Of a stretch of DNA of 64,000 bases, positions 2,461 to 63,850 are shown piece after piece. Under the pieces are notes generated by a model that had not been told where the DNA came from, searched no databases, and saw only the letters and a program-made list of their open reading frames with translations. Position numbers and translations under genes: made by a program. This DNA is from Eremomyces bilateralis CBS 781.70 (Eukaryota). Location: assembly GCA_010015585.1 (NCBI GenBank), contig ML975151.1; one strand, written 5' to 3'. Positions within the stretch are counted from its first letter, which is position 1, and every line of letters starts with the position of its first letter.

Positions 2461-4609
2461 TTACACATGAGGGTCATCGACAGCCACGGGCGCCGCAGCG
2501 GAGATAGTCTCGTCCCCCTCACTGCTTACCGTGTCCTTGCTCTGCGGTCGGTCATCGCTACTCGATGTTGGTTTTGGTGGCTCTGCGACGATGCCGGCAG
2601 GGACGCCGGGGTGGCCGAAAGGAACTCCATCATCATCAGCGTCGAGTTGCATGAGATAAGTCTCCCATATCTCGATCAACTAGAACGATGTCAGCGGAGG
2701 CACATTGGCATTGGGTGATTAGTAACCAGCGGGATTGACTGGAGGGAAAGAAGGGGCAGGGGGATTTTGTGCCTACCTCTTTCTGGGCCTCCACCGCGCT
2801 TTCCAAATATGTCTCTACTCCGCTCTTGAAATCCTCCACCTTCTCCCGCTCAAACTTCTCTAACTCTGCCCGCATCAGCCGGCCCATGTCCTCGAACAGC
2901 AGCCGCGCTTGGTGCACCTTCCGCTCGACGTCCGCCACTTCCGCCTGCAACTGCGTGATCTTGTCCTGCTGACTCCGCCCCTGCCTCAGCAATTTCTCTT
3001 GGCTCTGCCGCCGCTTTTGCAGCTCGCTCTCCGCCGCGTGCCATGTGTGGTACGCCTTTTGCCGCTGTCCGAATGCCATCTTCACACTACCGATCAGACG
3101 GATGTACTCGTCAATTACGATTCCGAGCGTCAGCATATCCTGCTGCGCTTGTCGGTCGCAGAGTTCGCGGATGCGCATTTGCACGTCGGAAAGGGCGGCC
3201 AATGGGCCCGAGAGAGACGGGGATAGCTCGACCGCAGAGAGGGAGGAGAGGGAGGTGGAAAATTCGAGGCAGGCTTCGGCGAGGGTCCGGCGTTGGCCAA
3301 CAACGATATCAGTGGTTTTCTGAAGAGCACGGAGTTGGTTTTCGAGAGCATCGAGGTAGACTTTGCGGTCGTGGAACCACTAAGGAAACAAATCAGTATT
3401 GTTGTACGGTTCGGAATCAGACGGTGGGCGAGAGAGGGCATACATCGTCATGTTCAATGAACTTGCTGCCACTGCCAACAGAGAAACCAATCGATGCCAT
3501 GACACCTTTGCTTTCGCCAAGACCAGGGTCTTTTCGCTCCTTGTGTTTGATGTCGACAGTAAAAGACTCGCTTTCAAGGAACAGCTTGAGGTCCCCATCG
3601 TGCTGCAAGATCGGATGTGCAGCAATCTTGTTCAGCATTCGCTCCAACGCCTGTCGCCTGGATTCAACGAAATTGACGTCGAAACGATTCAATGCTTGCT
3701 TCTCCGGTGGCGGAGGCACAACGATACCTGGGCTGTTGTTATGTAATTGGGTGTAGAGCCATAGAAAGTCTCGGTATCGTCGTGAGACTTCGAATTCCGG
3801 GTTACGGTAGGCCTTTGAGGTCGTCTGCCGCATTGTTAGCTTTCTCCCGTTTGTCACAGATTTCATACACGATCCATACTTTCGTCCGGACTTGATACAC
3901 AGTATGCGAGCTCGTAAGATCCCCTACTTTGTGCGGATCTCCTACTATGATGTAGAAACTTGGCTTCGCCGCCTCCGAGACACTCACGCTCGGCTGAACC
4001 TGTCGCCTTAGGCCGGTAGTAGCCTCTGCCGGTTGCACCGGCGGGGGTATTCTCGCTCCAGCTCTAGAGGATATGTCTTCTTCAACCTCGTCATCCAGAT
4101 TGACGGACTCCATCATTCCGCGGACAGATGATGTCGCCGAAGAGCTCGGGACGGTTGCTTTAGGGGCAGGGCGCACCGGAGTGGCTGCACTGGATTGTTC
4201 TTTGAGAGGCGGCGCGGGAGGGCCCTCAGCTTCAGGCGCGACGAAACTGTCACCTAATGGGCCAAGCGGATCTGAAGCATCATCAATAGCTTCTAAGCGT
4301 GTTGGTTGTGTTCCGAATCGCTTGACGGGTCGATGACCACGGCTTCTGCCTGAGCGAGGGGCAGCATCGTCGGTAGATGTGGTGGTTGCGGTGGATGATT
4401 CTGGGACGGATTAACGATCCATTATATAGTAGTCGGAGTCTCCGGAATTGGTTACCAAGGCTTTGAGTGCTATCTTCGCTAGTCTTGGGGATACTCTGAC
4501 TTGAAGTTGATCGAGGAGGCTCATCTGCTACTGGTTTAGTGGAGGTTGATGGAAAGCCGAAAAGGGATCTCCTACCGCCCCAAGGAGAATCATCATGCCC
4601 AAGATCCAT
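2461..4609 (-). CDS. VPS5: Sorting nexin Vps5 (PX + BAR), retromer component; multi-exon
   Basis: N-terminus MDLGHDDSPWG, a DPLGPLGD motif, PX domain (VGDPHKVGDLTSSHTVY, RRYRDFLWL, VVPPPPEKQ) and BAR C-terminus (FEREKVEDFKSGVETYLES...IEIWETYLMQLD). The ORF pieces are joined by GT-AG introns. Confidence 0.93.
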
Positions 4610-4804
4610 GTTTGTAATTCTGCCGAGGAAACTGATAATAATCTAGAGGAGTGGGTGTAGGCCCGATGTCCAGACGTGATGTCACCGCGATTGTGTATCG
4701 GGGAGCTTACAGCTACAATAATGTGCTGTCAGTAAGTCGATGTTATGGAATGACCTGTTCCAACTTCCATGTCCAAACCGATGGTCCGTGCGCCGATTCG
4801 CATT

Positions 4805-4860
4805 GCTAGACAGCTAGAGTGAGACAGCTAGACTGCTAGAATGCTAGCAAGATAGCTAAG
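4805..4860. repeat. Cluster of GCTAG(A) short repeats upstream of VPS5
   Basis: GCTAG occurs five times, plus one GCTAAG, within 56 bp. Confidence 0.6.
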
Positions 4861-5097
4861 AGAACTGAACGGAATTGCAATTGTCTGCCTTGCACACAAT
4901 TTATTCTAACGCATAACTTATTCATTATGGCCATCTCTTCAGCAAGGTATCCGAATAGTATATCTTCTTGTATCTATCACCCCCATCTGGCAACCCCCGC
5001 TTGGATAAGCCGCTATCTATTCCAGATACGCCATGTATACATCTCTATTCAGCGCCATCTAGACTGATATCCAGATTCCAGAGCCTCTTCCACCCAT

Positions 5098-12554: not shown

Positions 12555-14444
<1,890 letters not shown>

Positions 14445-25597: not shown

Positions 25598-26802
25598 TCA
25601 ACCCAATAAATCCCCCAACATATCCACATATGCCGTCGGAACGATCTCCTTCCCCTCCCCTAGAAACTCCTCCTTCTTCGACACCCCCGTCAACACCGCC
25701 AACGTCCCCCCAAGCCCCCCCTCAATCCCAAACTGAATATCCGTATTCAACCGATCTCCCACCATGCATGTCCGTGTCCGATCCACGTGAAACTTCCCCT
25801 CTACCGCATCCATCATCGCCTGACTCGGCTTCCCCAACGCCAGCGGCTCCGCCCCCCACGCCCGCACGATCCCCGCCCCCGTCGCCCCCGCCCCCGGGAA
25901 CAGCGTCCCGTGGCTCGGCAGCGTGCTGTCGCCGTTCGTCGCGAGGAACCGCGCCCCCGCCCGCAGATACGCCAGCGCGAGGCTCATCTTCAGGTAGTTG
26001 ATGTGGAAATCCAGGCCGATCAGCACGACGCCCACGGCCGGGTCGAGCGCGGCGCCCGAGGCGATGGAGGTGTAGTCGTCGGGCGTCATGTCGCGGCGGA
26101 GGGACGGGTCGGTGCCGCCGATGAAGGGGATGGAGCAGGACGCGAGCTCGTGCTCGATGCCGGCTTCGCCGAGGACGAAGACTTTGTTGCGCGGGGGCGA
26201 GAGTTTGAGGATCCGGGAGATGTAGATGGCGGCGCTGTAGGACGAACCGAAGACATCTTCCTGGGACGGTTTAGTAGAGGGGACGACGAAGGACGTTGAG
26301 TAGACGGGACGGATCTACCTCGTTGCATGGAATGCCTTTGGCGTCGAACTTCTGCTTGTAGGCTGCTCGGCTCTTGGTGCTGTTGTTCGTAACGAAAACA
26401 AGTCGCTTGCCTACGCTCGTTGGTAAGCCCCATTTCGCCTGCGAATTGTTGGGACCCTCACCTTTGTCTTTCAACATCTGAATCGTTTCGACGGTCTTGG
26501 GGTAGACCTGTTCTCCGGACCATAAGACGCCTATTTTCCGTACGTCAATCCCACTGCTCTTTAACTTTGAAACCGATGACGATAACAGAACAGCCGGGTC
26601 GTCCCGTCATTGCCGTCACGCTTTGGAGGAAACTTTTGAAAAGGTATGCAATAAGACATGCTCACCATCGCAATCAAACAAGAATGTCTTTTGTCCAATT
26701 AGTATTCTGTATAGTGCTGCCATTGGATATACGTACATCGAATCTGTCTATGAACTCATCTATGGCCGGCTTATCGCCGGTGAGGTACTTGGGAGTGACC
26801 AT
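25598..26802 (-). CDS. PHO13: 4-nitrophenylphosphatase / HAD-IIA phosphatase; 5 exons
   Basis: MVTPKYLTGD...FD/TFLFDCDG/VLW, FVTNNSTKSR, FLATNGD, LGKPSQ, MVGDRLNTDI and TLAVLTGV. Confidence 0.93.
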
Positions 26803-28677: not shown

Positions 28678-28711
28678 TGCGAAAAAACCATGATGATCGC
28701 TGTTATGGAGA

Positions 28712-38929: not shown

Positions 38930-39212
38930 GATGGCTCTGGATTTGAAGGAATTTGATGGATTCTGTTTAATTGCACGTTGACGAAGCTGTTGAGAGATAT
39001 TTCCCACACATTCATTGTTTGAATATAACAAGTATATCTAGGTAGTCAAGAAAAGATCCTGATTTCAATCTATCTAACCTTTTTCTACCGTATCCTTCTA
39101 ATCGTTCAGGGGTTTAGGTGGTGGGGTTACATGGCCAGACTTCGCTGGCAAAACGGTGTATATCCAAGGTATTGGAAAGCTAGAATCCCACTAATAGCAT
39201 TCCGCCCTTAGA

Positions 39213-42128: not shown

Positions 42129-42141
42129 GTATTTATGCAGC

Positions 42142-46496: not shown

Positions 46497-46858
46497 CCAT
46501 CGTTTTCATACATCTACCTTGTTCGGAATGCCGTGGAGATCGAGAGGATCCAGTGTGCAATATCCTGGGGTTTTTGCTCATACATTGGCTGGCATTTTAT
46601 TATGATTGCGGACTGGATCGATTCTTACTAGGTAGATGTGACTTTAAGGAATCAAATGTGCGTGTCCAAAGAAAGAGAGAGACTTATTCTGCGCCTCTCA
46701 AAACGGAGTGACTATCCAATCCACTCATGCTGAGATACGGGGGATGTCCCCTTTCCCATCCTTTACCAGGACACTATTACAATCACCTAGCCTGGTTCAG
46801 TTCTTAATGCATAAATCGAGGACGAAGTCATACGCCGAACCGCCCTTGACATCGCCGC

Positions 46859-48869
46859 TCATGAGATGAAGCCAAACTTTTCCTCCCCTCTCCTGACAAA
46901 TCGTAATGGGATCTTCCCCTTCCGCAGCTGGATGGTCAATATCGTCTTCATCTCCTTAATAATGAGGTCTTCCCCATGTTCCTTCGCTTTCCACCATACA
47001 TCCCCCAGTTCCTTTCGCCCTTGCTCTCCTCCCGCCAGCATACGCTCCACCTCTGCGTCACTGGCCCACTCGTCCACCGCCAGCTCTACGGAATATTTCT
47101 GGAAAATCACCGCCATTGTCGCGAGGATCTCGACCTGCGCGAAACGACGCCCTAGACAGCTCCGGAATCCTTCGCTGAAGGGGATGTAAGCTCCTCTGGT
47201 GGGACGGAAGAGCGTATTCGCTGTGTCCGGGTTCGTGTTGACACCAAGGTCTTCCGATTCCACCGTGGCGTCGTCATTGTCTTTTATGGGAACTGCGCTC
47301 GGATCCAGGATCCATCTTTCTGGCTTGAATTCCTCCATATCGTTGTCCACGTTGCTCTTCGGATGTGCTGGACGTTTTGGGTTACGTGGAGGGCCATTTG
47401 GCCAGTACTTTGGGTTGCGGTGCGCCGTCGTGGCCGAAAGGACGATGTACAAGTTACGAGGGAGGATGTGCACCTTGCCATTCAGGGTGAGCGGTTGACC
47501 GACATCCTCAAGTACGGTCTTGGGGATACCAATCACTGGTGGGATGAGACGGAGAGTCTCGTTCATGACGGCGCCGACGTATCCGCCAAAGAGTGGGTTC
47601 AGATCGTTATCATAATCCCATTCACTAATGGGTCGGCCTTGGAAGATGTTGTCGAGCTCCTCTTGAAGGTGTTTCTGACACCATGGGTTAAGTGCGAGGA
47701 AGAGGAGGACATGGAAGAGCGTGTTGGCACTTGTTTCATGGCCAGCAAGGGCGAAGACAAAGGCGTTGCCCAGGATCTCAGACTCGCTGAGACCCGCATC
47801 CGCTTTGCCGTAGTTTGGTGTTCCCGGGATAAGACCAGAGCCATCGATCATTGCACCCATGACATCGAGACCCCAGTCGCCTTTTTCCGAGGCAATTCGC
47901 TCCTTTTTCTTCTTCTGATACATCGACTCCAAATATTTGCCCCACTCTGTATACGCAAGTTGGGTCTCGCGGAGATAACCCCATGGGGAATATTCTAAGT
48001 AACCGTCAGCATAAGGTCCTGCAATTTCAGATCCTAAAAGACGAACTCATGAACCAGCTTGGGAACACAATGATGGGGATAATCCGATGAAGCAATATGT
48101 TCATGCTATCCACATAACTCATCTTGTGTCCCTCGGGAACCATGCTCGTGTTCATGGCTCCTTCTGCAATCGCCTTCTCGTCATTGTCATTAACACCCGG
48201 CCAAAGGCATCGGACGTTGAATATCGCTCGGCTAATAACGTGTAGCGTCTGCTTCATGGTATCGGAATGGGCATTCTGTATCGTCTGATTTCCCTTTCCG
48301 TCTTTGCCCACCCAAGACGTTAGCATCGCCGCCGCTTGGTATATGCTCTCTTGCCAAACGAGCCGATTGTTCTTCTCCGTAAACGGCGGGCTCGTTAGTT
48401 TCCGATGCCTCCGCCAGTCGTGTGCCTCGGTCGTGACGACGTTCTTTCCGAAAACATCTAACGCGGTGTATTGTGCTAACGGTTTGGGGAAGTGGGATCG
48501 CCTCGCCGCGATTTGCGTAATGACGGCCGGGTCTGCTGTGATAAGTATCGATCTCCCCGGCGCCGCGAGGATGTAGGTGTCAGATTTGAGTTTCTCATGA
48601 GGAGCAAATCCCTCGAGCCACAGGGAGTCATCGTAAATCATGTCGATCCAGTCGTCGGTCATCGACGTCGGAAGAAGCTTGCGAATGATGGGAAGCCATA
48701 GTCCACAGGTTGCCATCCAGAAGCGCGTGTATGGGTAAAGGGGCAAGGCTATGTAGGGGAATCCAGACGCTTTGGCGAGTTGGCATGACTTTCGCCAGGA
48801 AATCGCCCAAGTCACGACCCAGTAAACGGCGTAAGAAAGGACCGTGATACCTAGCCCGACAAGCTTCAT
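46859..48869 (-). CDS. Cytochrome P450; 2 exons
   Basis: TM anchor MKLVGLGITVLSY, FPKP, WRRHRK, LAGHETSA, ETLR, FKPERW and PFSEGFRSCLG. Intron at ~47996-48047. Confidence 0.92.
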
Positions 48870-49993
48870 TGTGATTGTTGGACCTTCGGAACTGACTAGA
48901 TTGGAAAGGAAGTGTAGAATGATAGTTATCACATTTCGACACACAAACAGGAAATGGGAATAGGGTAACTATGACTGCGGGGATAAGAAATGTCGAGAAG
49001 ATCAAAGGAGACGGAAGGCTGGACAGATTGAGTGAGAGGTGGTGGCGCCTCCCCCCATGATATCGATAAGTACTGGGTTAAGGTATTAAGGACCTGTAGA
49101 CTGCGGTAATGACTGAAGGACTCCGTACAGCTTTGGATCTGATTCATTCAACTACAACCGAATACCGGAGAGCCTGAAAATTGCAAGGTTTCCAAACGCC
49201 ACGAGTCTTGGGTTTGGGTCCTGGGAACACAATCCGACCTTCCCCCCACCTCTCTTAGCGAACAATAGCGAACAATGGCGAAGGTTTGCATATACGGTTA
49301 CTGGAGCTGACCGTGTCATCTAGTACATCCATGATCCGCTTCGGCTGAGCAACGTCGCTCAGGCAGACCTAGTTTCCTTACGGTTACAGGGAAGGGAGGT
49401 TGGCTGGGAAGTCGGCATGCGGCTCGATTCGAGGAGGAATGTCGTCGCTTACATTAAGAAAGTACTGGTTGACATGTCCAAATCATGTTGACCACAAGAG
49501 ATATGCTTCATTGTAGGTGGGGTAGAAGCGAAGTCAACCCACCCAAGGTACAGGTATGAAGTATGTATGTAGTATAAATTTGGAATGTGTATCAACTAAT
49601 ATAAGTTGGACTTTGTTGACTCAATTGTGGTGGTGCTGACGCGTGAATAATATGGACCCCCACCTCAATCATACGATATTGGGTAGGACATGCTGTGCCT
49701 TCATCACCACCCCCAATCACTGACCCGAGAAAGATAATGAGCGCAATGGTGTTCAAGTTTCACAAAGACCTTTCCATTAATTGCATAGATGATAGAATGC
49801 ATGGGGTATTGAGCAAGTGATCATAGGCCGCCCGAGTCCATGCAAGAAACGCATGCCACACTCCGAGTTATCCATCCAACGCACATGCCAATGCTGTCCG
49901 ATACCCCCCATGCTGGCCATGCAGAAGTAGAAGCCAAACGAAACAAAACCTCGCTGAAAATATGCTAATGATCTGTCCTCCTCACCAGCGGCG

Positions 49994-52900
49994 TTATTGT
50001 ACGCTCCCAAACGCCTTCTTCATCCGCTCCTGCCACTCCACGCTCTTCCGCATCGTTTCGCCCAAGGTGTTCCCCTCCCCACTCCTACTCGACCGTCCAT
50101 CCTCCCTCCCCTCGCTACCGCTCCCGAACCGATGCCGCAGAATCTCCTGCACCTGACCCTCCCGCTCCGCTTCCTCCGCCCGCTCCTTGACCAACTCCAC
50201 GCTGCTCTTCTTCGTCCCGCGATCCCACCCCTGCTGCAGCTCGTCCGCCGCTGCCTCCTCGAACCGTTTGCGGACGCCTAGATCCTGCTCGAGCTGCTGA
50301 AAGATGTTGACATCATTGGGGAGGTACGCGGAGAGGAGGCTGGAGACAGCGATCTCGAAGATGAAGACGGCGGTAATGATGAGGATGAGGGAGAGCCACC
50401 AGGATGGGTTGGTGCCGAAGCGGGAGTAGATGCCGCCTTTGACGTTGTAGATCTTGTCGTTGCTGTCCTTGTAGAGAGCGGCGAGGATGATATTCCAGAG
50501 GAACCAGGCGAGGATAGAGAGGAAGAGGCTGATAGCGACGGCGATGGATTTGTTATGCATTTCGATGACCCTGACGAGGGTGTTAGTCGAGACTTGCCGC
50601 GTGGAAACGGTTGGATGAGATGGTACTTACTGCATCTTCAATGAGATGATAATCACCACTGCAGTGAAGGTCATGTCACCCAGCGCCCAAAGCCCCTGAT
50701 CCTTCGTGAACACCGCTTGGCCATATAGCCCCAACATGCAGAAATACACCACCATCGCCTCGCACGACGCCATAAACGTCCACCACAAGTAGACCTTGAA
50801 GTTGAACCCTCGATTCTGCTGCCCAATATTGTACAACTCGGGCACCGCCAGAAGCGTCGAGGCCGCCAGATCCTTTTCAAAAATGCCCATGAAAATGACG
50901 GGTAGCGAGGTGAACAGCGTATTGAACATGCTCAAGCTCCACGGCTCGTAGAGACTGGTCCCCGTGTATCCCGCCCAGCGCTGAAACAGCGCTTGCGTGA
51001 GGTAAAAGAGCATTTCTTTCCAAAATGTCCCGACGGTGTATTTGCACGTCCGCACGTAGTTCCACCGTCCGTGGACGAGCAACAGCTTGGTCAAGAACCG
51101 GAACTGCGCGATAGAGTAATCCGACGTCCGTGCCGCCTGCAAGCCTTCTTTTCCGGTAATGCCGATTCCGACGTGCGCTTCTTGGATCATGGCGATGTCA
51201 TTCGCGCCGTCGCCGATCGCGAGGGTGATGGACTTCTTGACACGTTTCCGGATCGCTTTGACCAGGCTGGCTTTCTGGCTCGGGCTGGCGCGGCAACAGA
51301 CGACCGAGTCGGCGAGGATGGCGAGGTCGAAGAATAGCGCGCGGATGGGCGCGTCGGCCTCGATCGTGGCGAGAGTTTGCCCGTCGACGACTACGACGGA
51401 GTGCGCGACGCTGCCGTCGTTGATCCCTAGGATCGCCGCCGCAATGTGCTGCTCGACCTCGCCTGCCTCCTGGTCGAGAACCGTGACGATGGAATAGTCC
51501 TTAATAAGGCGACATGAATGGCCAATATTGATCGCCGTTTCTCGTTTGTCGCCCGTCAACATCCACATCTTGATGTTCGCACGTCGCAGCTTGTCAATTG
51601 CCTCGGGGACGCCCTTTTGTAGCTTATCCTCGATGGCGGTTGCACCGGCGAGTTCGAGGTCGGTTTCGATGAGCTCGCCGGCTTGCTCGATCATGTTCTG
51701 GCGGTCCACGAGACTGGTAGTTGCGTCGAGGTAGACCTTCTTCCAGGTACTGTATTCGTCTGCCGTCAAGAACCGGAACCCGTAGAGTAGCGTCCGCAGT
51801 CCCTCGGTCGCGAAGTCATTGATATGCTGGAAACATCGTTCGAACACGGCCGCCTCGTCCGCGACCATGGCCTCCTCCACGAGATCGTCCATCTCGTCCA
51901 ATTGCATGGAACTCCGCGCCTCCGACCCCACCATCGACGGCCGCCCCAACTGCGCCGACGGCCGCGGCGAGTAATACGGCGCATGGCTCTCCAAATTCGA
52001 CGCATCCACATCCGTTTCCCGCTCCGTCAACCAATCGTCCAACGTATCGCGAATCGGCCGTAGCCGCCCCCCGCTCATGCTCGGCCGACTCAGCCCGCCG
52101 AAACTTGGCCGCCCCACGTTGAGACTCATGCTCGGCCGACTCAGTCCCCCGACGCTGGGCCGCCCTAAGCTCAGACTCAAGCTCGGCCGCGTAACGCTCA
52201 CCTCGCGCGCGAGCTGCTCGCTCCGCCGCTGGATGGCGAACTGCGCCTCCAGGCTCTTCCGGCGGTTTGCGCGCCCCTCGATCTCCACGACCTTCTGGTT
52301 CGCAAGCGCCGCGTTCTTCAGCAGCTGCATGACAACCGAGTCGGCGCCCTTGCAGAGCACGCAGACGCGGCCGTCGGGGAAACGGACGACAGCAGACATG
52401 CGCTTGCGGCGGGAGGAGAACTCGATGATATCGAGGATGTCGTAGCGTTGGGTGATGGGGGTGGGGCTGCCGTCGGGGTGAGGGTGGGTAAGGGTGAGGG
52501 TGTAGGCGTCGCGGTTGATGGCGAGGTAGCCGAGCTCCTGTGCAGCGCGGATGAGAGCGATCTCATCGGGGGAGGACGCTTGGAAGTCGACGGTGCCGTC
52601 GGGTTGTTTCTCGGGGAGACAGGTGTGGCAGAGGGCGATGGAGAGGAGGAACATGCGTGCCTTGCGCGCGAATAAGGTGTTGGGGCGCCGTTGAATATAT
52701 CGAATGAGCTCTCGCGTACGGAGCTCCGGTTGTGATTTGGCTGGTCGAGCGCTGGATTTCCAGGCGGAGGACTCGGGTGGGACGTCGGCGTCGACGATGG
52801 CGTCGGTACCGGATTTGTCGGCGGGTAGGCGTTTTCCGCTCTCCGACAAGCGTGATTTCTGCTCCGCCCGCAGGCTTTTGCCTTTGCGCTTCTTGTGCAT

Positions 52901-55129
52901 CAGCTTCTTCTTCCCGCACTCCCCCTCGACGAGGTCCACGTCGTGTAGCCACGCAGTTCCGGCCACCGATATCTTGCGAAACTTCATGGAATTGTCCGTC
53001 AGGGTGCCAGTCTTGTCCGAGAAGATGTAGCTGACTTGGCCGAGCTCTTCGTTGATCGTCGAGGTTCGGGGCTCGCACGGGGTGTTGGAGACCTCGTCGT
53101 ACATATCGATATCGTTCAAGAAATACATCTGGGCCAACTTGATGATCTCCAAGCTGACGTAGAGCGACAGGGGAATTAGCGTGTTGAACATAATGATGAA
53201 CGACGCGAGGATGGGAAAGAATGCGACGCGCGCGTTCTCGAGGTACCATGACCGGCTCTCGTGGCGGTTTTTCCAAATCTGATAGGCCACGGTATTAAAG
53301 AGGGCGAGCAAGATCACGAAGACCACCACGACGATGACGATCTTGTTCACGATCGCCTGCAGCTGCGGCGCCTTGATACGCGGGTTTTTGTTCGCGTTCA
53401 TCCGGATCTTGCACTCCTCGCCCGAGTAGATGACCATCCCGATGGCTTCAGGGGTATTCCGGAGGATGCTGCCACGGTACACGATCTCATTATTGGTCAA
53501 CGGCGCCGTCTCGTCGTCCACGGTGACGCGGCCCTCGAAGTTGTAGAGGTCGAGGTTGGGGTCCTCGACGACGAATTTGGCGCGACATGCCGCAATCGCC
53601 TCCAAATCCGTGCATGATTTCGCGACCGATGGCGCGGCCTGTTTGGTTTTCAGGTTCGTCTCGCCGTCCAGCGCCATGGTCTCAATGTATGCGATGTTGT
53701 TCGGTCCGTCCGAATGCAGCAGCGCCAGATCGGCCGGGGCCGCGTCGTCTCGCTCCAGCCGAACGATATCGCCGACCTTCAGGTCCCGCCACTTCGTCGC
53801 CGCCCACACCAACGGGCCATGGCTCGGCGACTTCGGTGGACCGTCCGGCACCTGCGCGGACGTCGGCTCATACGCATGCAACACCTGTGCATCGCGATTG
53901 TTCTCCCCCTTATCCAAGCGATACCTCCGCAGATCGTCGTACCCCTCCTTCGCCATGGCGAGCATGACGAACACTAGCAGCGGCACGATGGTCGTATACG
54001 TCCCCGTGGTGCTCAGCCCGGGAATCATCTGTAAGATCGACACGCTCAGGAAATAGAAGTTCGCCAGCTTCGAAAACTGCGCGAACAGCTGCCGCGGCAC
54101 GAAGTTCCACGCCGTGTACCGCGTCGACCGGATCGTGTTCCCCACGTACTCTCGCCCCGTCCGCTCGTCCACCCGCGCCCGCTTCCGGAACGCGTCCAGC
54201 TCCACATGCCGCCCGTCCGCGCTCGCCGGGATCTCCTGGATGCGCAGCACGAACCGTCGTGCCCGCCGGTACAGCGTGCGTATCCGCTTCGTCACCTCGT
54301 TCCGCCCGTGCCGCCGCTTCTGCACCCAGTTCGCGTAGTTTGGCAGCGCCGACACCCCGTGCTCGGCTTTCATCGCCTGTAGCCGACTCAGCGCATCCCC
54401 GCCTACCCCCGCACCGGTGGACGACACCGGCACGATGCTCTCGATCGATTTCCTGCTCTTAACCCCGTTCCCCGGCTCGTTCCCTGCTGACGGCCCCGCC
54501 GGCTCCACCAGCTCGATCACCGTCGCCGCCTTCGACTGGTGCGTGTCCACGTTCCGCTGAAACAGCGTCCTCCGCAACGAATACCCACGACTCCGCCCTG
54601 CCGGCGCCACCGGCGACGTGGACCGCTCCCGCGGCGCGTCCTCGCCGCTCGCCCCGCTGCGTGACCGTCCTTGCTCTAAGATCGTCGACACCGGCACCGC
54701 GTCGTCCGGCGCGTCGAGTTCACTCCCTAGCCCCGCGCCGGGGGTTTGCTCTCCAGGATTGTCGACCTCTGGCCTCCGTAGGCTTCTAGGAGTGGTCGGT
54801 TCGCTCGCACCGCGTCCGCCTGTTGACGCGACCTCCGGACCGGGAGTTTCTATCTCCATTGAGAACCGCACGCGCGGGGTAGGTTCTACAGCGGAGGAGG
54901 CGGATGCGACGGGGTGCAGCTGGTCGGGGCGATCGGTTCCAGTTCCATTTCCGTTGCCGTGTTCGTGTCCTTGTCGGGGTGTCGTGGGGTGCGGGGAATC
55001 GGCATGTGTGTCCTCGCTTGAGGTTCGAGATAAGACTGTTCCGGCATCGATGTCGTGGCGGTGCAAGGAACGGCGGCGGACGCCGCTTGAGCGATTCGAG
55101 TCGGGGGGAGGGGGGTCGTCGTCTGCCAT
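49994..55129 (-). CDS. DNF3: P4-type ATPase phospholipid flippase, Dnf3/DnfC-like; 2 exons
   Basis: QFSKLANFYF, LDGETNLK, IPLSLYV, SDKTGTLT, SSPDE, TGDKRET and GDGANDI. The subfamily call rests on overall resemblance. Confidence 0.88.
52074..52189 (-). repeat. 51-nt tandem repeat (~2.3 copies) within the flippase cytoplasmic insert
   Basis: CTCATGCTCGGCCG recurs at 52074 and 52125, and as the variant CTCAAGCTCGGCCG at 52176. It encodes RPSLSLSLGRPSVGGLSRPSMSLNVGRPSFGGLSRPSMS. Confidence 0.85.
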
Positions 55130-56671
55130 TGTTGGACCGGGAGGTGGCGATCTAGAAGACCGGCGACGAAGGCATTAGCATAGTGTATCTATCTAATACT
55201 TCAAATATTTGCAATGGGAATGAATGCACTCATCGACGCCGCCGATCAGCGGATGTGCACGGCTTCTCGAACATGGCCGAAGTGGGCGAAAGAGGACTTA
55301 CCAGTCGCCAAAGCTGGCAAATCAGACCCTCTCCAAAGCGGGACTCGACCACATCCTCTCATTGATTTGTAAATCCAGGAAGAATGAGGGTAATGTAGCA
55401 AGCCATGTTTCAAAATGTATAGAAGTGTAGAAAGACGGAAAGTTGGCAGGATGAGGCTGAAAAGGTTCACAGACAGGTTGGTTGCCGGCGGCAGGTTGCC
55501 GGTCGATGGTGGTGTCCCTTGTCTGAATGGGGAGTGGTGTGGTCACTATTGTTAATAATCCAGTTGCCCACAATAGTGTCCGGTCGTGGAACGGGCGAGT
55601 TCCGCAAGTCTATCGCCCCCATTCTAGGTGGATACTAAATAATACAGATCCTCTCATAAACTAAGAGAAAATCCCTTAGAGATTAAGATTGGTGTTCTTG
55701 AGGACTGAGGAGCCACAAGATATCCGCTGCTATTATGGCTCCTAAGGAAAAGTCACTTAATGGGCAGGAAATATCACCTACCACCACCTGAAGGGTAGGT
55801 ATATAGCACAGCATATAACACCACACAAACTAGCACAGCGTGAAATCACATCCTTCATTCGTTTCGGCTAGAATACATCTCCCCAATCCCGATGCCGTTC
55901 CAGTTCGTCCATCCACGAACAGACTTTCATGTGCGTTGGCCCGGTCATCCATCCCAGGGCCCCGTCCATATAAAATGGAAAAGTCCACTGAACCCGCACG
56001 ACGCCAAATCATTAGAATGCCCTTTTGCGAAAGAGGAAAAACACACATAAAGCGCCATGCCCTGTTTCGTTCCCTGGGATGGAGTGATCGTTCATCGGGG
56101 GAGTATCGGTGTTTTTTTGGGTGGGATAACAATGAAAAGCCGGTATCAATAAGTTTGGAGCGCGTCGGATTCCCACTCATGTGAGACGCGCCCGGTTTTT
56201 GAGGTTTCGCCGGATTGGAAAAAAAAAACGCCGTGGGAGGCACCCGACCACCCTGTGGATTCGTCCGTCTCTATCGCCAATACCCGTGTCCCTCGGTCGT
56301 CGAACCTCATTAACTCCGTTTCGTTCAATTGGGGAATCAAGTCGCTCTCTCGTTCGTTTGCTTGTTGCTTGCTTGCTTGCTTGCTCATTCATTCGGTCGC
56401 GTTTTTCGTGTTCCGGGCGCGACGAATGTAAAGAATACCGCATCCCCTACCATGTCGCTGGAGGTGAGGTAGGCTGGGGAGGAAAGAACCGCAGTGAAAG
56501 CCATCAAAAGCCATCATCCGAACCGCTCACAATGCAATACGCTATGCTGAATTGCAGAATCAACCATCGAAAACCATGGAATGGCCCGCCTGCCGCTGAC
56601 CCCTCTTGAATCCTCTACATTTCCTCCAAAGTTCATCGATCCTGCTTTTGACCGTCCGTATTTTTTTGCGC

Positions 56672-58570
56672 TCATTGCTGCGCCTGCTCGCACCAATGCC
56701 GATGATACACCCACGCGCTCTTCTGGCACTCCTTGCTGCAGTACTTGGTGCGCCGACAGCGCCGGCACTTGGCGAACTGGCGCGCGTACTCCTCCCAGCG
56801 CCCGCACTGGTAGTACGCGCACTGCCGGATGCCGCCGCGCGAGTCGTCCTTGCGGCAGAGGTTCCGCATCACCACGCCTGCCCAGTACTGCATCTCCTGC
56901 CCGTGGTGCTTCACGGTGAACTTCTCGACCACCGGGAAAATGTTGAAGTCGTCGGGGAGGAGGTATTCGTCGTCGGGATCGCACTCGTCTGCGGTGGTGG
57001 GGGATTGCGCGGTCTTGGAGGATGAGGAAGTGGTGGGGTCGGAGGAGGATGCGGTTGCGGACGAGCTAGGGTCGGATGGCAGGTCGTCGAGGAACGAGAG
57101 ATCCTTGGCGATCTTGAGGCGGGGGACGAGGTGCGATTTCTGGAAGTAGGATCGCAGATTGCAGTACTTGGACACGTAGGCGAGGAGTTGCAACGACATG
57201 AGCACGTCGTCGTCCCGGGGCATCGTGGCCAGGAGACTGGCAGTGAGATTCCGATCTTGCGCGAAGCGTGGGAACCACCCGGTCGTGAGCGGTTGGGTGC
57301 TTGGGTTCACCATGCCATTGAGCACGGTTTGGCCGGGAGCGAACCCGATCCCAGCAGCGGGTTGGTTGGCAATCGGGTTGATGAGACTACCGTCGATGGC
57401 GGAGGGGTGGTTGATATCGAAGGTTTCATTCTCGGTGTTCTCCGAGGCAGGCGGGGTGAGTCGGACCGGAGTGGCGCCGGCATCCAACATTTCCTCGTTT
57501 TCAATGTCTTGCATGTGGATGTCATTTTGCAAGGTGACGGTCGGGTCGGTTTGACCAGGACCGGTCGAATCCACCGGCATGATGTCGTCACTTGGGATAT
57601 CGTCGCTAACACCGGACATGGAGAGTTGATGTCGGATGGAAGGTCGTCGAGGAGTACGGTCGGGATCTTCTTGTGTGACGGAACTGATGGATTGAAGCTG
57701 GGCGGGGGCGCTTGGAGTGGTGGGAGATCCAGGCTGGGAAGTCAGTTCCGCCTGGAGGGAGGGGAGCATCGAAGGGAGGCGGTCCGAATCGCGGACCGGT
57801 CGGAGGTTCATGTTTTCGGGTGGCTGCGTCATTGTCGGGCCTGCAGTCACCAGCGGTTGAGGGATGAGAGGCCGTCCACTTCGACTTGCGAAGGTTGTTC
57901 TCTCATCGATGCTTGGGGTCTGCTGGTGTGTACGTCCCGTCCGTGGGCCGGTGAAGGTGGTTCGCTCAGGCGGGGAGCTGAGTGAGAAGGGAGGAGGCAC
58001 AGGATCGTTGTCGAGTCGACCTTCGGTGCTGTACGGAGCGGGAATCTCGATGGGGGGGGGTGCATGTCGACGATGCCTGTCAGATCGATGGGTCGACAAT
58101 GATGCGAGGTCACTGCCACGAGACAGATGTCTTGAACCGAGACGTGCAGCACCACGCTTGAGGTCGGCCTCGGCACGCTCTCGACACTTATCCATGACCC
58201 GAATATAGTTGTCCAGCAGTGTAGCGATGACGGGGACGATGTCTGCCTCGACGACCCTGGTCCGTACACTTTCGGATCCTCGCACGCCGATATTGACCAC
58301 GCATTGGAAGGCTAGGTTCCATTTCCACACTTCCATCAGATCGCCGGCTTTGCCATCTTTGAGGATGGACACCAAGCGCTCAACTCCGCCATCGACGGTT
58401 AGAATGTCCCGTATCCGTGGAGATGATGTCGTAAGGTATGCCAGATGATTTAGTGAATTGATAAGAGGAAGGGTAGAGGTGCAGTCAAGGGCTCGTCGGT
58501 CGTACAGAGCGGTGGTGATGCCCACCGACGCCTTGTTGGAGTTCGGGATGCTGAAGTTGACTTCCCTCAT
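56672..58570 (-). CDS. samB: MYND-type zinc finger protein SamB/Mub1, intronless
   Basis: N-terminal MREVNFSIP...ITTALYDRRALDCT, YWAGVVMRNLCRKD and the MYND finger CAYYQC...CRRC...YCSKECQKSAW..HRHWC. Confidence 0.93.
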   Translation of the reverse strand: MREVNFSIPNSNKASVGITTALYDRRALDCTSTLPLINSLNHLAYLTTSSPRIRDILTVDGGVERLVSILKDGKAGDLMEVWKWNLAFQCVVNIGVRGSESVRTRVVEADIVPVIATLLDNYIRVMDKCRERAEADLKRGAARLGSRHLSRGSDLASLSTHRSDRHRRHAPPPIEIPAPYSTEGRLDNDPVPPPFSLSSPPERTTFTGPRTGRTHQQTPSIDERTTFASRSGRPLIPQPLVTAGPTMTQPPENMNLRPVRDSDRLPSMLPSLQAELTSQPGSPTTPSAPAQLQSISSVTQEDPDRTPRRPSIRHQLSMSGVSDDIPSDDIMPVDSTGPGQTDPTVTLQNDIHMQDIENEEMLDAGATPVRLTPPASENTENETFDINHPSAIDGSLINPIANQPAAGIGFAPGQTVLNGMVNPSTQPLTTGWFPRFAQDRNLTASLLATMPRDDDVLMSLQLLAYVSKYCNLRSYFQKSHLVPRLKIAKDLSFLDDLPSDPSSSATASSSDPTTSSSSKTAQSPTTADECDPDDEYLLPDDFNIFPVVEKFTVKHHGQEMQYWAGVVMRNLCRKDDSRGGIRQCAYYQCGRWEEYARQFAKCRRCRRTKYCSKECQKSAWVYHRHWCEQAQQ

Positions 58571-59149
58571 GGTGATGGGTGAGGTCAGTGACTTTAGCTA
58601 ATCGAGCTCGGTTGAGGTAGGACGACGATGGAACCAGATCGTGGCAGAGTGCGAATGTTTGTAATGCACTCTCAACACCGGCTTGGCCACCACGGAGATT
58701 GCTAATGGCGTGAAGCTATCGACCAGCGGCAAATGGCGATAACGTTGCTGCTCAAGATGCAGGCAGTTTGACAGCACCACAGGTTGATGAAGCATGCACT
58801 GATTCGAAGCCCAGTCAAGGGTTAATCAATGAGCTGCCTCGATGTTGCCGTCCGAATTTCCCGATGGACTTGGCCGTTGTAATGTCGGATGTTGGCAGTA
58901 CGGTGATCTGAGGTCCCAAAGATGGAACGACACACGGCTGCGGATGACTGCACAATGATGCACAATCTGATGATGGATCGAAGGCAATAAAGGATCCGGA
59001 GTCGAGGATGAGGATCAACGGCTGCGAGGAGAGGCAGCGGATGAGTGGTCCGGGATGGGAAGAGGACAGGAAGAGGTGCTTCGGTGGTGACGATTTCGCA
59101 GTCCGTGAGGGAGATCCCAACGGTGCTGAGTGAGGGATGGGCCACAGCC

Positions 59150-59420
59150 AAGCAACAGCAAGGAGTACGGTAAGGAAGGGTTGGTAGGGCCACGGAATAA
59201 AAGGGCACAGAAGAGAAGGAAGTGGTGGAAGGAAGGGATTGGGATGGAAGGGAAAGAAAGATAGATGGAGGGAGTGGATGGTATGGGGAGGGAGTGAATG
59301 GAAGTGAAGAGGAGAAGGGGGATGGTTGGTGAAGGGTGGATGGTTTCAGTGAGAAAGTGAGGAGTGGTGTGTGGAAGGGGAGGGTCCAGTGGTGTGTGTT
59401 GGCTGTTGGAGGGGGTGTTA
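59150..59420 (-). promoter_or_regulatory. Long CT-rich tract upstream of samB (probable TSS / 5' leader region)
   Basis: About 270 bp that is strongly purine-rich on + and pyrimidine-rich on the samB sense strand. CT boxes commonly mark TSS regions in filamentous fungi. Confidence 0.5.
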
Positions 59421-61058
59421 GTGAGTATCGGAGTGGGCGGGAGTGATGGGGGCACCGGACATGGGCGGTCCAGAGCCCCCAGAGACAGGCAAATCCGCAA
59501 AACTCCGCAAGAAAAAGGCCCCTAAATACAGTGTACTCCCGTAGCTGGAGGGCGAGGCGATGGCGAGGCGACGATGTGGCTGGTCGGTGATTGGCTGGAA
59601 TTTGCGCCTCCTCTGCAACCCTCAAACGCGACACCGCCACACACCGACAGTCCTGCTAATCTCTGTGCTTGTTCTTCTAACTATCTGCAAACATTAGGGG
59701 CACAGTTCCAGTTGATACTAGTATATTTATTCTAATCTTCAAATTATCTACAATCTCATTAAACCACTCTATAGAATCCGATTACCAAAGTCAATCTCTT
59801 CGGCTGTCGACTGAGTCACACGTGAGTGATGTGAGTGATGCGTCGCAGACGAAGGAGAATCGATCAATTCACATGTGCCACCACCACGTGAGCAGCCAGC
59901 CCTATGGGTGCGGCTTGGGCCGGTAGTTACGCCACTATCAGCCCCATCTGTTATGATCTGGATCGATCATGAATTCATGATGTCTTGTCACTCCACATCG
60001 GCGACTCAGTTCCATCTAAATCAACTTCTCTGCGTCTAGTTTCATGTCTTTCATAGCCATCGGGTTGTCTGACAGGGCCGAGCCGTGTCGCGTCTTCGCA
60101 GGGCGTCCGAAAGGATGAGGAGAAAGGGCCATCCCGTACGGAGAGACGAGGTCAAGTCTGCCTGTGGCGTGGTGTGGGTAGTGGGTACCTGACTGTTAGA
60201 TCCATCTAAAGCATATCGACTCTTGTCACTTGCGCAACCAAAGAGCAACTTCACGATAGGCTGTTACAGTCCTAGTAGTATTTAGAGGAATTAACCAACG
60301 GAATGGCAGAGTAGTAGCGATAGGTTGGATTAATAATAACCAATCCCCTTGACATTGGGTGTGTGGATGGTGAGGGACCTTTCCTGGGAATGTTTTTATG
60401 ACGCAAGGGACGAATCAGGGAGTGGAGAGCCTAAATTTAGGCGGTTGACAGCCAATCAGCAGGCGCTGGGCACTGAACCACGAAACGACCAGGGTCCCGT
60501 CCTATTCATCCCGCGGTGCAGTGCGCTGGACATCAACAACTGGACAACACCAACAAAACATCCTCCCTGGCCCCAAACAATGTCCTTCTTCCCCCCCATT
60601 TCTGGCCGCTTAGATCTCCAAAATCCCCCCGACCTTGCACCATGGCAAGCCTGAGCTAGATCCGACGTGAAGTGCCGCTGTTGAGTTCAATTGTAGAGCA
60701 ATTGCTCCTGGTAGCTCGGCGGGCGGCGGTCAAGGAAGGAGTGCAATCCCATCCAGCTATTGATACTACCGGTATGTGAGGTTTAAGCCTTTTCTGCTCA
60801 GGAGTTCGGACGATGTCTTCTTCAGGCTCGGGTTGAGCTCCAAAAGTCTCAGATCTCCCTGTTTCTTCTGCCGAGTCCTTTGCTGACCGAGTGTGATAGG
60901 TCGCAAAGATCGTAAAACGGAACGAAAATATCGACCGCGCATTCCAACCCTCTTCCACTTAACAGGGCACTATTCCACGGACTTCTTTCCATCTTTACAG
61001 CCTGAACACTGTGATTCTAGAGTCTTCAACTGGCGCATCACCGCCTGCCTATACCAAC

Positions 61059-63431
61059 ATGGCGAGCGGAGACTTCCTTGCTGGAAGTGTGGATCCTGAA
61101 ACCCTCTACACAAAGCAGTCATGTATTGGAGGTGGCAGTTTTGGGAAGGTGTACAAAGGGTCAGTGAGATTTCTACAATTTATAGGCCATTCAACTGAGG
61201 ATTATCTAGGGTAGACAAGAGAACAGGACAGGCCGTCGCCATCAAGGTCATTGATGTCGAAAACGCTGAAGATGAGGTTGAGGATATCATCCAAGAGATC
61301 GCCATCCTGTCTGAGTTGCATTCTCCTTATGTGACCAAGTACTATGGGTCCTACCTGAAGGGATCGGACCTGTGGATTATCATGGAGTTCTGTTCGGGTG
61401 GCAGCTGCCAGGACCTAATGAAACCAGGGCTCATTTCTGAAGAGTATATCACCATTATTATCAGAGAGCTCTTGATGGGACTCGAGTACCTACATGGGGA
61501 CAACAAATTACATCGGGATATAAAAGGTGAGGGTTCCTGATTCCTTCCTCTCAACCAAACCGCTCATGAATGCCACAGCTGCCAATATCCTCCTTGGAGC
61601 GAATGGCCAAGTCAAGCTCGCTGATTTCGGTGTTTCCGGCCAACTCTCCGCAACGATGACGAAGAAGAACACATTTGTAGGCACGCCTTTCTGGATGGCC
61701 CCGGAAGTCATCAAGCAGTCAGGCTATGATCACAAGGCGGACATCTGGTCCCTTGGTATTACCGCCCTCGAACTCGCCAATGGCGAACCTCCGTATGCGG
61801 ATATCCACCCCATGAAGGTCCTATTCCTCATCCCGAAAAATCCACCGCCGCAGCTCCATGGTACCTTCTCCCGCGCCTTCAAAGACTTCGTCGAGCTGTG
61901 CCTCAAGAAGGAACCTCGCGAACGTCCATCCGCCAAAGACCTGCTGAAACATTCCTTCGTCCGCCGCGCCAAGAAGACAACTTATTTGACGGAGCTAATC
62001 GAACGCCGTGAGCGCTACGTCGCGCAGAAAGGCGGAAAAGACTCCGATGACGAAACGGAAGACGATTCCTCCACCGACGGCGATGCCTCGCGCTTGTCTA
62101 ACGAAGACCTGTGGGACTTCGGCACCGTCAAACCCGTCAACAACCGCGCGGCCGCCCTCCAAGACCTCAACGACGCCGCCGCCAACGCCCGCACGACGCA
62201 CCACTCTCCCGCCCCCTCCCCGACCAAAATCGATCGATTCGACTTCGCCAACCCCCTCCCCAAGCGGTCCGGCTCCGGTGAGGAGAACCGTGCCCCGGGC
62301 GAGCCGCAGCGGCAGCCACGCGTCCCGTCGGCAAGCACGCTCCGCATCCGGGCACCGCCAGCGCCTCTACCTGCATCGCCGAAGCGCCAGAGCGGTATCG
62401 ATGGAACGGTCGTGCAGGAATCGCCAACCCGTGCGGCGAAGATCCCGTTGCCGCCGTCGCCGGAGAAAGGGCGACTGGAGAAGACGTTCGTGCCGCTGAC
62501 ACCGTCAAAACAGATACGGGATGAGATGCTGCTGGGAGAAGAACGGAGAGTCACGCAAGAGGCGTCGCGATTGGATGGGTTCTTGCAGCGGGGAATGGCC
62601 GGGTTGAACATCCATTCCGGACCGCAGAGGAGCCCGGTGGTAGTTTCGCAGCAGTCACCGTCTCACCGTCCCTCGACTCCAAAGCGGCACGATGAAATCC
62701 CGCTGCCATCGTTCGAAGTGCCACGGGCTCGACCGTACCGAACCGTGCAAGAGCAGGCCCCTCCCCCGAAGCTTTCCACGCCGATCACCCTGCCTCCTAT
62801 CCCGCCATTCAAAGGCAACCCTCCCCGCCCATCCCACGACCTCCCATCCCACTCCTCCCTCAACCCACAAAAGCCCCTCCCCTCCTTCTCCCCTCCACCC
62901 CAACCATTCACCCCACCCCACCCCCACCCCTCCCCCTCCCACCACCCGTCCCCACTCTTCCCCTCACCCCACCTCTCCACTCCCTCTCAAAACCAACCCC
63001 CCCCCGGCTCCCTCCCCATCCCCACTCCCACCCCCCTTTCCAACATATCCACCCCACCCTCAACCCACCCCCCTCCACCTCCCCTCCACCCCCAACAAAC
63101 CCCCGACATCACCGCCCTCACCTCCGTCGTCCTCCCCGCCCTCGAAGAAGCCCTCCGCCGCCGCAGCGCCTCCGTGCACCACGCGCAAACCGCCTCCCGC
63201 CGCGCCGAGACCCACACCGACGCGTCCCGCGCGCATGCCGACGCGCTCCGCACCCAGCGCGAGGCGCACGAGCAGATCCGTCGGCTGGTGGGGAAGGCGG
63301 CGCGGGTGTTTCGGGAGATCGATGCGTGGGATGCGGCCGGGCCGGTTGAGATGGGTGGGGGAGTGGTGAGTTTTTTGGAGGGGATGTTGGAGGAGGTGTT
63401 GGTTAGGGTGGAGGTGGGGGATGAGGAATAG
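61059..63431 (+). CDS. mst1: Ste20-like germinal-centre kinase (GCK-III, MST3/STK24-like); 3 exons
   Basis: [24 protein letters not shown] and the STE20 signature GTPFWMAPE, followed by WDFGTV, a Pro-rich region and a helical C-terminus. Confidence 0.88.
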
Positions 63432-63525
63432 GAGTGAGGAGTGAGGAGTGAGGAATGAGTGGAGGGATGATGATGGTCATGGCTGATGCTTTATGATGGA
63501 TGATGGATGATGGATGAGTGATGGG
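63431..63525. repeat. Short tandem repeats (GGAGTGA)n and (GATGGAT)n after the kinase stop
   Basis: ggagtgaggagtgaggagtgagg and gatggatgatggatgatggatga. Confidence 0.7.
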
Positions 63526-63850
63526 TAGGGCGGACTGGCGGGATGGACGATTGATCGATGCGATACGGATGACATCGGCGCTGCTGAAGTGAGCCTTTTC
63601 TGTTTTTGTGCGGCTCGCTGGGCGTGGCTTGTGGTATTTTTTCTACGGACGACAACGGCGTTTCAGGGGCAGTGATGGGCCCGAGTAGCAAGTCATACAA
63701 TCGATGCACGTTTGGCGAAGCGGATTTTATTGCTGTGGTTTACTTCGAACTATAGGCGGTGGGTAAGAACAATAGCAGCTATTCTGATGTGGAATTCTCA
63801 TAATGGGTGATAGGTGAATGGTATTTGACTAAGTATTATCAACATGAATT

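Follow-up and report, generated by a model that had tools for sequence, protein, structure and literature searches.

Stop-anchored skew flips in genes of Eremomyces bilateralis are an unusually strong instance of fungal intragenic GC skew

In a stretch of 64,000 nucleotides (nt) from Eremomyces bilateralis CBS 781.70 (contig ML975151.1, assembly GCA_010015585.1), referred to here as the window, the strand asymmetry of G over C (GC skew) switches repeatedly from C-rich to G-rich inside protein-coding genes. These flips are an unusually strong instance of the intragenic skew already known from fungi, and an origin-type interpretation of them, raised by an earlier, sequence-only reading of the window, is not upheld. 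On balance, and with modest confidence, we favor a view of the switches as this genome's version of the fungal skew, namely a stop-anchored, transcription-linked, GC-raising strand bias. The sense strand would then be C-rich through the gene body and G-rich over the last 100 codons or so (~300 nt) and the first ~100-200 nt of the 3' untranslated region (UTR), promoters and 5' UTRs would be C-rich, and the returning G-to-C changes would fall partly between genes. In those genes of the window that are rich in G and C at third codon positions (GC3), the effect is extreme and block-like, with silent sites either ~90% C or ~90% G.

The pattern to which we compare these flips was described by McLean & Tirosh (2011, BMC Genomics 12:638; PMC3315797), who found that the coding strand of fungal genes favors C toward the 5' end and G toward the 3' end, in a data set that includes filamentous fungi such as Aspergillus and Neurospora. 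In their analysis the skew acts on 4-fold degenerate (4-fold) sites, shifts amino-acid usage, and extends into promoters and 3' UTRs, while AT skew is flat. The authors offer one mutational and one adaptive hypothesis for its origin, the adaptive idea being avoidance of C near transcript 3' ends.

Results

Skew jumps and their polarity

We defined a jump as the change in GC skew between 400-bp flanks, with a threshold of at least 0.4 at a local maximum, and also ran the scan with 200-bp flanks. All 11 switch points listed in the sequence-only reading show a positive skew change (0.25 to 1.27, 400-bp flanks), and nine of them have a local maximum that reaches the threshold no more than 100 bp away, the weak ones being 33800 (0.29) and 62330 (0.25). 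Five further C-to-G maxima of at least 0.4 were absent from that list (1683, 23611, 24595, 32827, and 59051), and the strongest C-to-G jump of all sits at 63255 (1.31). At the 0.4 threshold, the scan counted 14 C-to-G and 16 G-to-C jumps across the window. When the sequence was shuffled 100 times in 2-kb segments, the mean counts were 0.19 and 0.30 and the highest counts 2 and 3, respectively, and chance is thereby excluded as the source of the jumps.

The earlier list implied an excess of C-to-G switches, which the scan does not bear out, reverse jumps being equally frequent and sharp. With 400-bp flanks, C-to-G and G-to-C jumps number 14 v 16 at a threshold of 0.4, 9 v 7 at 0.5, and 4 v 2 at 0.6, and with 200-bp flanks they number 36 v 35, 20 v 16, and 7 v 10 at the same thresholds. 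The window thus presents the very balance of polarities that the sequence-only reading had named as telling against its own proposal. A three-state hidden Markov model (HMM) divided the skewed sequence into 13 C blocks and 12 G blocks of 76-1129 bp, which have sharp outer edges and return to neutral skew. An accompanying enrichment in A, implied by the description of the C blocks as C(+A)-rich, fails, since no more than 6 of the 13 have a positive AT skew. The reported absence of switches from the accessory block at 5-23 kb holds in the main, with no HMM block from 3036 to 23974 and no jump of at least 0.4 between 4753 and 23611, although a chromate-transporter gene there has a weak flip in total skew. 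The transposon was also said to be free of switches, and its transposase indeed shows none.

That the switch runs from C-rich to G-rich on the + strand whichever way the gene points is uninformative, because C-rich followed by G-rich is its own reverse complement. Any feature that is C-rich upstream and G-rich downstream on the sense strand will therefore have the same + strand polarity, and finding this polarity in both gene orientations is no sign of a process blind to transcription. Since the sense strand passes from C-rich to G-rich at every flip, the simplest account is a process that depends on gene direction.

Anchoring to gene ends

For a stop-anchored profile, 13 non-transposon genes of the window were aligned on their stop codons. 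Pooled sense-strand skew is -0.21, -0.25, -0.19, and -0.25 in the four 100-nt bins from -700 to -400 and rises to +0.07, +0.26, and +0.40 over the final 300 nt before the stop, reproducing the C-biased gene body and G-biased 3' end of PMC3315797. In the final 100 nt, all 13 genes have a positive skew, as against -0.08 in the transposase. A spill into 3' UTRs, part of both the published pattern and the sequence-only reading, was confirmed: over the first 100 nt past the stop, the genes together have a skew of +0.21, with 11 of the 13 positive, one at zero, and one negative. Pooled AT skew stays between -0.03 and +0.12 from -1500 to 0 without a flip, roughly as flat as in the published genomes.

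The same change is found when only 4-fold sites are counted. The last 80 codons hold C135/G219, compared to C525/G280 in codons -280 to -100 (Fisher 1.6e-17), and 4-fold skew in 40-codon steps back from the stop runs +0.32, +0.17, 0.00, -0.35, and -0.31. The sense-strand C bias reaches its maximum directly before the flip, not at the 5' end. The GC content of 4-fold sites (GC4) is highest, at 0.76-0.78, over codons 41-160 back from the stop, where the sign changes, compared to 0.58-0.67 further upstream. Pooled total GC has its maximum of 0.63 in the -300 bin, and in 11 of 13 genes the peak falls in the interval from -600 to -200.

Individual jumps follow the same geometry. Eight of the 14 C-to-G jumps fall 100-500 nt upstream of a listed stop, where 1.2 were expected (binomial 6e-6), compared to none of the 16 G-to-C jumps. 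Listed coding sequences (CDS) contain 13 of the 14 C-to-G jumps vs 6 of the 16 G-to-C jumps, and five of the latter sit 70-221 nt past a stop. The flips follow gene direction and mostly lie ~300 nt before the stop, an arrangement known from fungi and no mark of replication origins.

Near-pure runs at silent sites

The bias at synonymous sites proposed from the sequence alone is present, and it is stronger than was stated. In the P4-type flippase gene, 4-fold sites alternate between ~90% C and ~90% G inside one gene: C/G counts are 27/4 in codons 1-80, 8/101 in codons 161-360, 66/6 in codons 761-920, and 9/51 in codons 961-1080, and in the last exon they are 32/1 in its codons 1-80 and 3/21 in its codons 121-188. 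The protein kinase gene has 70/3 in codons 441-560 and 1/11 in codons 601-634, and the last exon of the PHO13-like hydrolase gene carries the 4-fold letters A6 C14 G72 T3. Written out as a string, the 4-fold letters of the flippase form near-pure runs with edges 3-15 sites wide, so that block edges span 10-75 nt, and the autocorrelation of the 4-fold C/G state is ~0.3, flat out to 50 codons, and reaches ~0 by 120-160 codons. Together with the GC4 profile, these counts and the autocorrelation bear out the broader proposal of a regional, strand-asymmetric bias at synonymous sites with local GC peaks. Strong blocks occur only in the GC-rich genes of the window.

The presence of the skew at 4-fold sites in window genes agrees with PMC3315797, and its disappearance there, which the sequence-only reading had named as evidence that would count against a site-level bias, did not occur. 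Nearest-neighbor context was ruled out as the cause of the choice between C and G at 4-fold sites (597/588 after C, 299/298 before C). Amino-acid composition, uniform codon bias, and dinucleotide context are all excluded as sole causes.

The two block types differ in composition. Sense-C blocks are 56% C at 4-fold sites and sense-G blocks are 68% G, unlike the strand-symmetric gain of G and C expected of GC-biased gene conversion. In sense-G blocks T is the most depleted 4-fold base, at 0.06 vs 0.17 in neutral sequence.

The flippase gene in other fungi

One metagenome scan with the flippase returned 69 fungal loci, which extend the comparison beyond the window for this one gene. Among the 41 non-redundant loci with an identifiable stop, 88%, 93%, and 93% are G-skewed in the last three 100-nt bins, and their GC content likewise peaks at -300. 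As in PMC3315797, the pattern at the gene end is thus common to other fungi, here on the evidence of a single gene. Internal block positions are shared weakly among orthologs: against the mean of its relatives the window flippase reaches r=0.40, against single relatives it averages 0.13 (28 of 37 positive), and the pairwise r among relatives is 0.07. Ancient introns at the internal block edges were ruled out, as most relatives align in one or two pieces (95 pieces for 69 loci).

The window flippase stands apart in the strength of its blocks. Its heterogeneity, expressed as X2/df, is 6.71, vs a median of 1.43 and a maximum of 2.76 among the 57 loci with at least 20 bins (near-identical loci included), and the standard deviation of its bin skew is 0.60 vs a maximum of 0.49 in relatives. 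Its GC4 of 0.83 is the highest observed, relatives ranging from 0.42 to 0.80 and being mostly C-biased at 4-fold sites, and the gene itself is slightly G-biased at these sites overall (G fraction 0.55). These values point to a lineage-specific rise in GC3 at the flippase locus; the closest relative has only ~72% amino-acid identity. A general increase of block strength with GC4 among the relatives was ruled out, X2/df and GC4 being uncorrelated (r=-0.01).

Amino-acid positions move with the silent sites in this lineage. The 4-fold skew of the window flippase correlates with its own skew at codon positions 1+2 (r=0.41) and is uncorrelated with the position-1+2 skew of its relatives (r=-0.02), which indicates that a regional bias in this lineage pulls amino-acid positions along and rules out a conserved amino-acid composition as the seed of the blocks. 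In the relatives themselves, 4-fold and position-1+2 skew show a mean r of -0.01 (34 of 63 positive).

Blocks in individual genes

The flippase gene (- strand) carries three block pairs. At its 3' end, sense G-rich sequence covers 49828-50290 (+ strand skew -0.43), including ~165 nt of 3' UTR below the stop at 49994, and the flip at 50271 lies 277 nt before that stop. The adjoining sense C-rich block (50291-50623) comprises the 5' part of the last exon, with 4-fold counts of 32/1, and the intron at 50571-50630, which is backed by a joint in an RNA-like contig. An internal pair at 51850-52829 was delimited by the HMM, with, on the sense strand, C-rich sequence at 52829-52373 (codons ~761-920; 66/6) and G-rich sequence at 52372-51850 (codons ~961-1080; 9/51). 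The 5' pair, also an HMM result, spans 54140-55147, with sense C-rich sequence at 55147-54876 (codons 1-80) and a G-rich run from ~54740 that continues at 4-fold sites to about codon 480. Internal flippase flips sit in GC peaks of 0.63-0.70. Within the internal G block, codons ~970-1020 (52000-52260, - strand) form a lineage-specific insertion with a tandem peptide repeat, SL..GRPS.GGLSRPSM, and this bin is aligned across by only 14 of 42 non-redundant relatives. Immediately upstream of the flippase ATG lies a 150-nt intron (55152-55301, - strand) that is backed by an RNA-like contig joint and is, from its position, a 5'-UTR intron.

On the + strand, the kinase gene has an internal HMM pair that is not near the stop, consisting of a C block at 62123-62389 and a G block at 62390-62646, with 4-fold C/G of 18/4 in codons 201-240 and 7/41 in codons 281-400. 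A second pair follows, in which a sense C block at 62647-63260 (HMM; GC 0.69, skew -0.63) covers a proline-rich linker and a conserved tail, and a 3' G block at 63261-63679 (skew +0.58) covers the last ~57 codons and ~250 nt past the stop at 63431, the flip at ~63255 being 176 nt before this stop. The 3' UTR at 63432-63520 (+ strand) consists of short tandem units, GAGTGAG-like and then GATGGAT-like, is nearly free of C, and prolongs the G block past the stop. The kinase C/G pair contains weak inverted repeats of 70-78% complementarity, which are low-complexity C-runs opposite G-runs.

Several further genes on the - strand carry blocks or flips, described here as they read on the sense strand. 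The PHO13-like HAD hydrolase gene is G-rich at 25599-25992 (last ~130 codons) and C-rich at 25993-26312, with the flip at 25895, 297 nt before the stop, and 4-fold C/G of 2/60 in codons 41-163. In the M18 aminopeptidase (APE4-like) gene, the G-rich 3' end (29251-29602) and the C-rich block (29603-30118) meet at 29602, 342 nt before the stop. The second of two P450 genes has a sense 3' G block at 46969-47089 and a flip at 47173, 314 nt before the stop at 46859, and the patatin-like gene is sense G-rich across its stop at 39213 (39187-39393) in both the HMM and the stop-anchored profile. In the gene for a MYND-finger (samB-like) protein, the part at 56672-58062 is C-rich over 58062-56934 and G-rich over the last ~230 nt, with a flip at 56902. 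In the VPS5 gene, a sense G block covers 2772-3035 in the C-terminal exon and the flip is at 3166, the likely stop lying near 2462 after an intron at ~2681-2775. On the + strand, the CDH1/Fizzy gene has a weak flip at its 3' end (33600-34014), with the jump of 0.29 at 33800 and a last-100-nt skew of +0.29.

Upstream of the samB-like gene, 430-900 nt before its ATG, lies a pyrimidine (C/T) tract of ~470 nt (58998-59468, - strand) with a + strand skew of +0.65, which is covered by an RNA-like contig. This tract represents the usual fungal promoter or 5'-UTR C bias.

Gene content and transcript support

The window has the appearance of DNA from a filamentous fungus, with short GT..AG introns, and the gene labels assigned in the sequence-only reading agree with Pfam. 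Matches include a Vps5 C-terminal domain, the large subunit of DNA primase, the PHO13-like HAD hydrolase, a Tc5/pogo-type DDE transposase, the M18 aminopeptidase, a CDC20/Fizzy WD40 protein, a sugar transporter, a patatin-like lipase, the two P450 genes, the P4-type flippase, the MYND-finger protein (samB-like), and the protein kinase. In one sequencing run, presumed to be RNA, contigs show nine GT..AG or CT..AC joints in the window, which indicates that the run holds spliced transcripts. These contigs are unstranded and list no transcript starts or ends. The nine supported introns measure 50-150 nt, and, few and short as they are, their skew does not consistently track that of the flanking exons.

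The RNA-like contig that contains the 5' region of the flippase continues as far as 57456, within the 3' part of the samB-like gene, and the two genes are thus joined by contiguous transcribed sequence. The two P450 genes (44356-48944) lie tail to tail, one on the + strand at ~44.3-46.5 kb and the other on the - strand at 46.86-48.94 kb, and carry four of the RNA-supported introns; between them, the G-to-C jump at 46747 marks the meeting point of both 3' G blocks.

The transposase is encoded by an intact 554-aa open reading frame (ORF) of Tc5/pogo type at 27013-28677 (- strand), with DDE_1, HTH_psq, and Tc5 HTH domains. Its 4-fold composition is even (A72 C66 G41 T73), and it has no 3' skew flip, unlike every surrounding host gene. 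Both features would fit a recent arrival. A 635-aa ORF at 235-2142 (+ strand) and several ORFs of 160-320 aa at 6-20 kb have no Pfam match. The 635-aa ORF shows a 3' flip at 4-fold sites (C9/G13 vs C47/G14), which argues for a real gene of long residence.

Discussion

Relation to published skews

The window shares with PMC3315797 the bias along the gene body, its presence at 4-fold sites, its reach beyond the stop, and the flat AT skew; for promoters, the likeness is clear in the samB C/T tract and weak in a pool of four genes. Unlike the genome-wide averages and gradients of that study, genes of the window have near-pure silent C or G runs with sharp edges, a GC4 peak at the flip, and several alternations per gene. 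Open-access full-text word searches returned no paper on multiple internal silent-site C/G blocks in fungal genes, an outcome that does not prove absence. The promoter side of the pattern has further precedents. The part of Fujimori 2005 (PMC555766) drawn on here describes an excess of C over G near the transcription start sites of plants and fungi, and that of Bourras 2012 (PMC3411245) describes a C skew in the promoters of a filamentous fungus, with its peak at -50. The C tract upstream of samB and the C-rich codons 1-80 of the flippase resemble these start-site skews; unlike them, as they concern promoters and 5' ends only in the portions cited, the window also has a flip near the stop codon and internal blocks.

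The near-pure silent sites, the sharp edges, the GC peak at the flip, and the amino-acid drift favor a substitution bias over selection at the protein level. We infer a strand-asymmetric, GC-raising substitution bias that would be tied to transcription, with its sign set by position in the transcription unit, and that would act at all codon positions as far as protein constraint permits. A candidate source is the bypass of abasic sites by Rev1/Pol zeta on the exposed non-transcribed strand, which would convert T, C, or A to G and might be enhanced by R-loops. In the sections of Owiti 2018 (PMC6063437) on which we rely, yeast Rev1/Pol zeta place a C across from abasic sites, T>G, A>C, and C>G changes that depend on transcription result, and R-loop accumulation raises T>G specifically on the non-transcribed strand. 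The process so described is strand-asymmetric, GC-raising, and transcription-dependent, and turns exposed-strand bases to G, as the blocks would need; unlike the case in the window, it is shown there in S. cerevisiae reporter genes, and those sections show no sign change along a gene. The depletion of T in sense-G blocks fits loosely with the abasic-site route, though the block types are not mirror images. G-rich transcripts stabilize R-loops, and a self-reinforcing loop through such transcripts could yield sharp, near-pure blocks. At human gene 3' ends, a G-rich skew is reportedly linked to R-loops and to termination. The sense strand is G-rich around the gene end there as in the window; unlike the human skew, which is said to lie beyond the poly(A) site with a 5' end that is also G-rich, the G block of the window already starts within the CDS, ~300 nt from its end, and is paired with a C-rich 5' end.

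Several observations weigh against a transcription-linked gradient anchored on stops. Deep intragenic flips, both C-to-G (52372, 54786, and ~62389) and strongly G-to-C (62756, 50671, and 52807), are not predicted by a simple 5'/3' gradient, and the VPS5 flip, at ~700 nt from the likely stop, is an exception to the anchoring. The 5' C bias is weak when pooled (-0.15 to -0.19, in only four genes with a secure ATG). Depletion at 4-fold sites is not mirror-symmetric, with A.12, C.14, and T.06 in G blocks and A.14, G.17, and T.13 in C blocks. The GC peak is centered on the flip, which suits a locally centered process at least as well as one that follows the phase of transcription. Finally, the blockiness of the flippase is exceptional among its relatives: the published pattern is a modest average gradient, and here single genes are ~90% pure.

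In this lineage, the flips might instead mark discrete block pairs of ~0.8-1 kb, made by a strand-asymmetric, GC-raising process, each centered on a peak of silent-site GC, with one ~300 nt before nearly every stop and others every 2.1-2.4 kb in the flippase (50271, 52372, and 54786). We regard this arrangement as possible and rather improbable.

Alternative explanations

Recombination-linked dyads are a comparably doubtful alternative, in which break or gene-conversion hotspots raise GC and treat their two sides asymmetrically, so that skew flips at the center. The coincidence of the flip with the peaks of GC (0.63 in the -300 bin) and GC4 (0.76-0.78) is what such hotspots would produce, internal flippase flips also lie in GC peaks, and adjoining HMM blocks are ordered C-then-G seven times (eight with one pair 136 bp apart) vs G-then-C three times. 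That adjacency of 8 v 3 is, however, not significant (one-sided binomial 0.11), and jump sizes are equal between polarities. Classical biased gene conversion is moreover strand-symmetric, which the blocks are not, and the anchoring ~300 nt before stops, seen in 8 of 14 flips here and in many fungi, would need hotspots placed at gene ends in all of them. Antisense transcripts, starting from gene 3' ends and from internal sites, would carry a 5' C bias of their own that reads as G on the sense strand. The G block (3' UTR plus the last ~300 nt of CDS) is similar in length to the C-rich 5' zones of the flippase (codons 1-80) and samB (its C/T tract), and internal initiation could also explain the internal blocks; left unaccounted for is the maximum of C bias just upstream of the flip instead of at the 5' end, and we consider this explanation unlikely. 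Equally unlikely, in our assessment, is selection, whether for avoidance of C near transcript 3' ends, for G-rich ends that serve R-loops or termination, or for a separation of G and C that limits folding of the messenger RNA. The reach of the pattern into the 3' UTR and its occurrence across fungi speak for selection, C avoidance having been proposed in PMC3315797, as does the confinement of strong blocks to GC-rich genes. Against it, orthologs hardly share internal block positions (r 0.13; pairwise 0.07), only in this lineage do the positions that determine amino acids shift along with the blocks, and predicted RNA folding is inconsistent, being better than in 20 shuffles for the kinase C/G pair (z -4.08) and worse for the 3' pair of the flippase (z +2.05).

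Two further explanations are far less probable. Amino-acid composition, in the form of proline-rich and glycine/glutamate-rich low-complexity segments, gains some plausibility from the strongest jump, which separates a 120-codon proline-rich stretch from a Gly/Glu/Val-rich tail, and from the correlation between position-1+2 and 4-fold skew (r=0.36 over 168 windows). The effect is nevertheless larger at 4-fold sites than at positions 1+2, it is present in the conserved PHO13 HAD domain and the flippase core, it runs on into 3' UTRs, and the composition of relatives does not predict the blocks; with the 4-fold counts, the last point rules composition out as the sole cause, and we hold it to be very improbable as the explanation of the skew. 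The least probable of all, in our view remotely so, is that the flips are bidirectional replication origins at which leading- and lagging-strand skew changes sign. Skew domains reportedly mark mammalian replication origins, and with these and with bacterial oriC the window shares only the polarity of its jumps on the + strand, C and then G. In scale, amplitude, gene-end anchoring, equally sharp reverse jumps, and absence from accessory DNA, it differs. Fourteen flips in 64 kb, bounded by blocks of 76-1129 bp with neutral flanks, do not amount to replicon-scale skew, and G-to-C jumps are as sharp and frequent as their counterparts. Position is not independent of genes: all but one of the 14 flips fall within coding sequence, at GC peaks, stop codons anchor 8 of the 14, and 19 kb of accessory DNA contain none. 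Eukaryotic replication skews amount to a few percent, far below the 4-fold skew of up to +/-0.9 found here. The origin interpretation of the polarity consequently does not survive the equal reverse jumps, the short blocks, and the stop-anchored flips.

Implications

C-to-G flips of this kind are not to be taken as origins or hotspots. Silent-site skew could instead help to place the 3' ends of fungal genes, and the high amplitude of the effect suggests this genome as a good place for strand-resolved mutation spectra. If the centers of the putative block pairs were sites of antisense or internal initiation, of R-loops, or of break repair, silent-site skew alone would map them. More generally, should the block-pair arrangement be true, the purity of the blocks in this genome (X2/df 6.7 vs at most 2.8 in 57 loci) would make it a natural amplifier for finding the cause of the 5'-C/3'-G skew of fungi.

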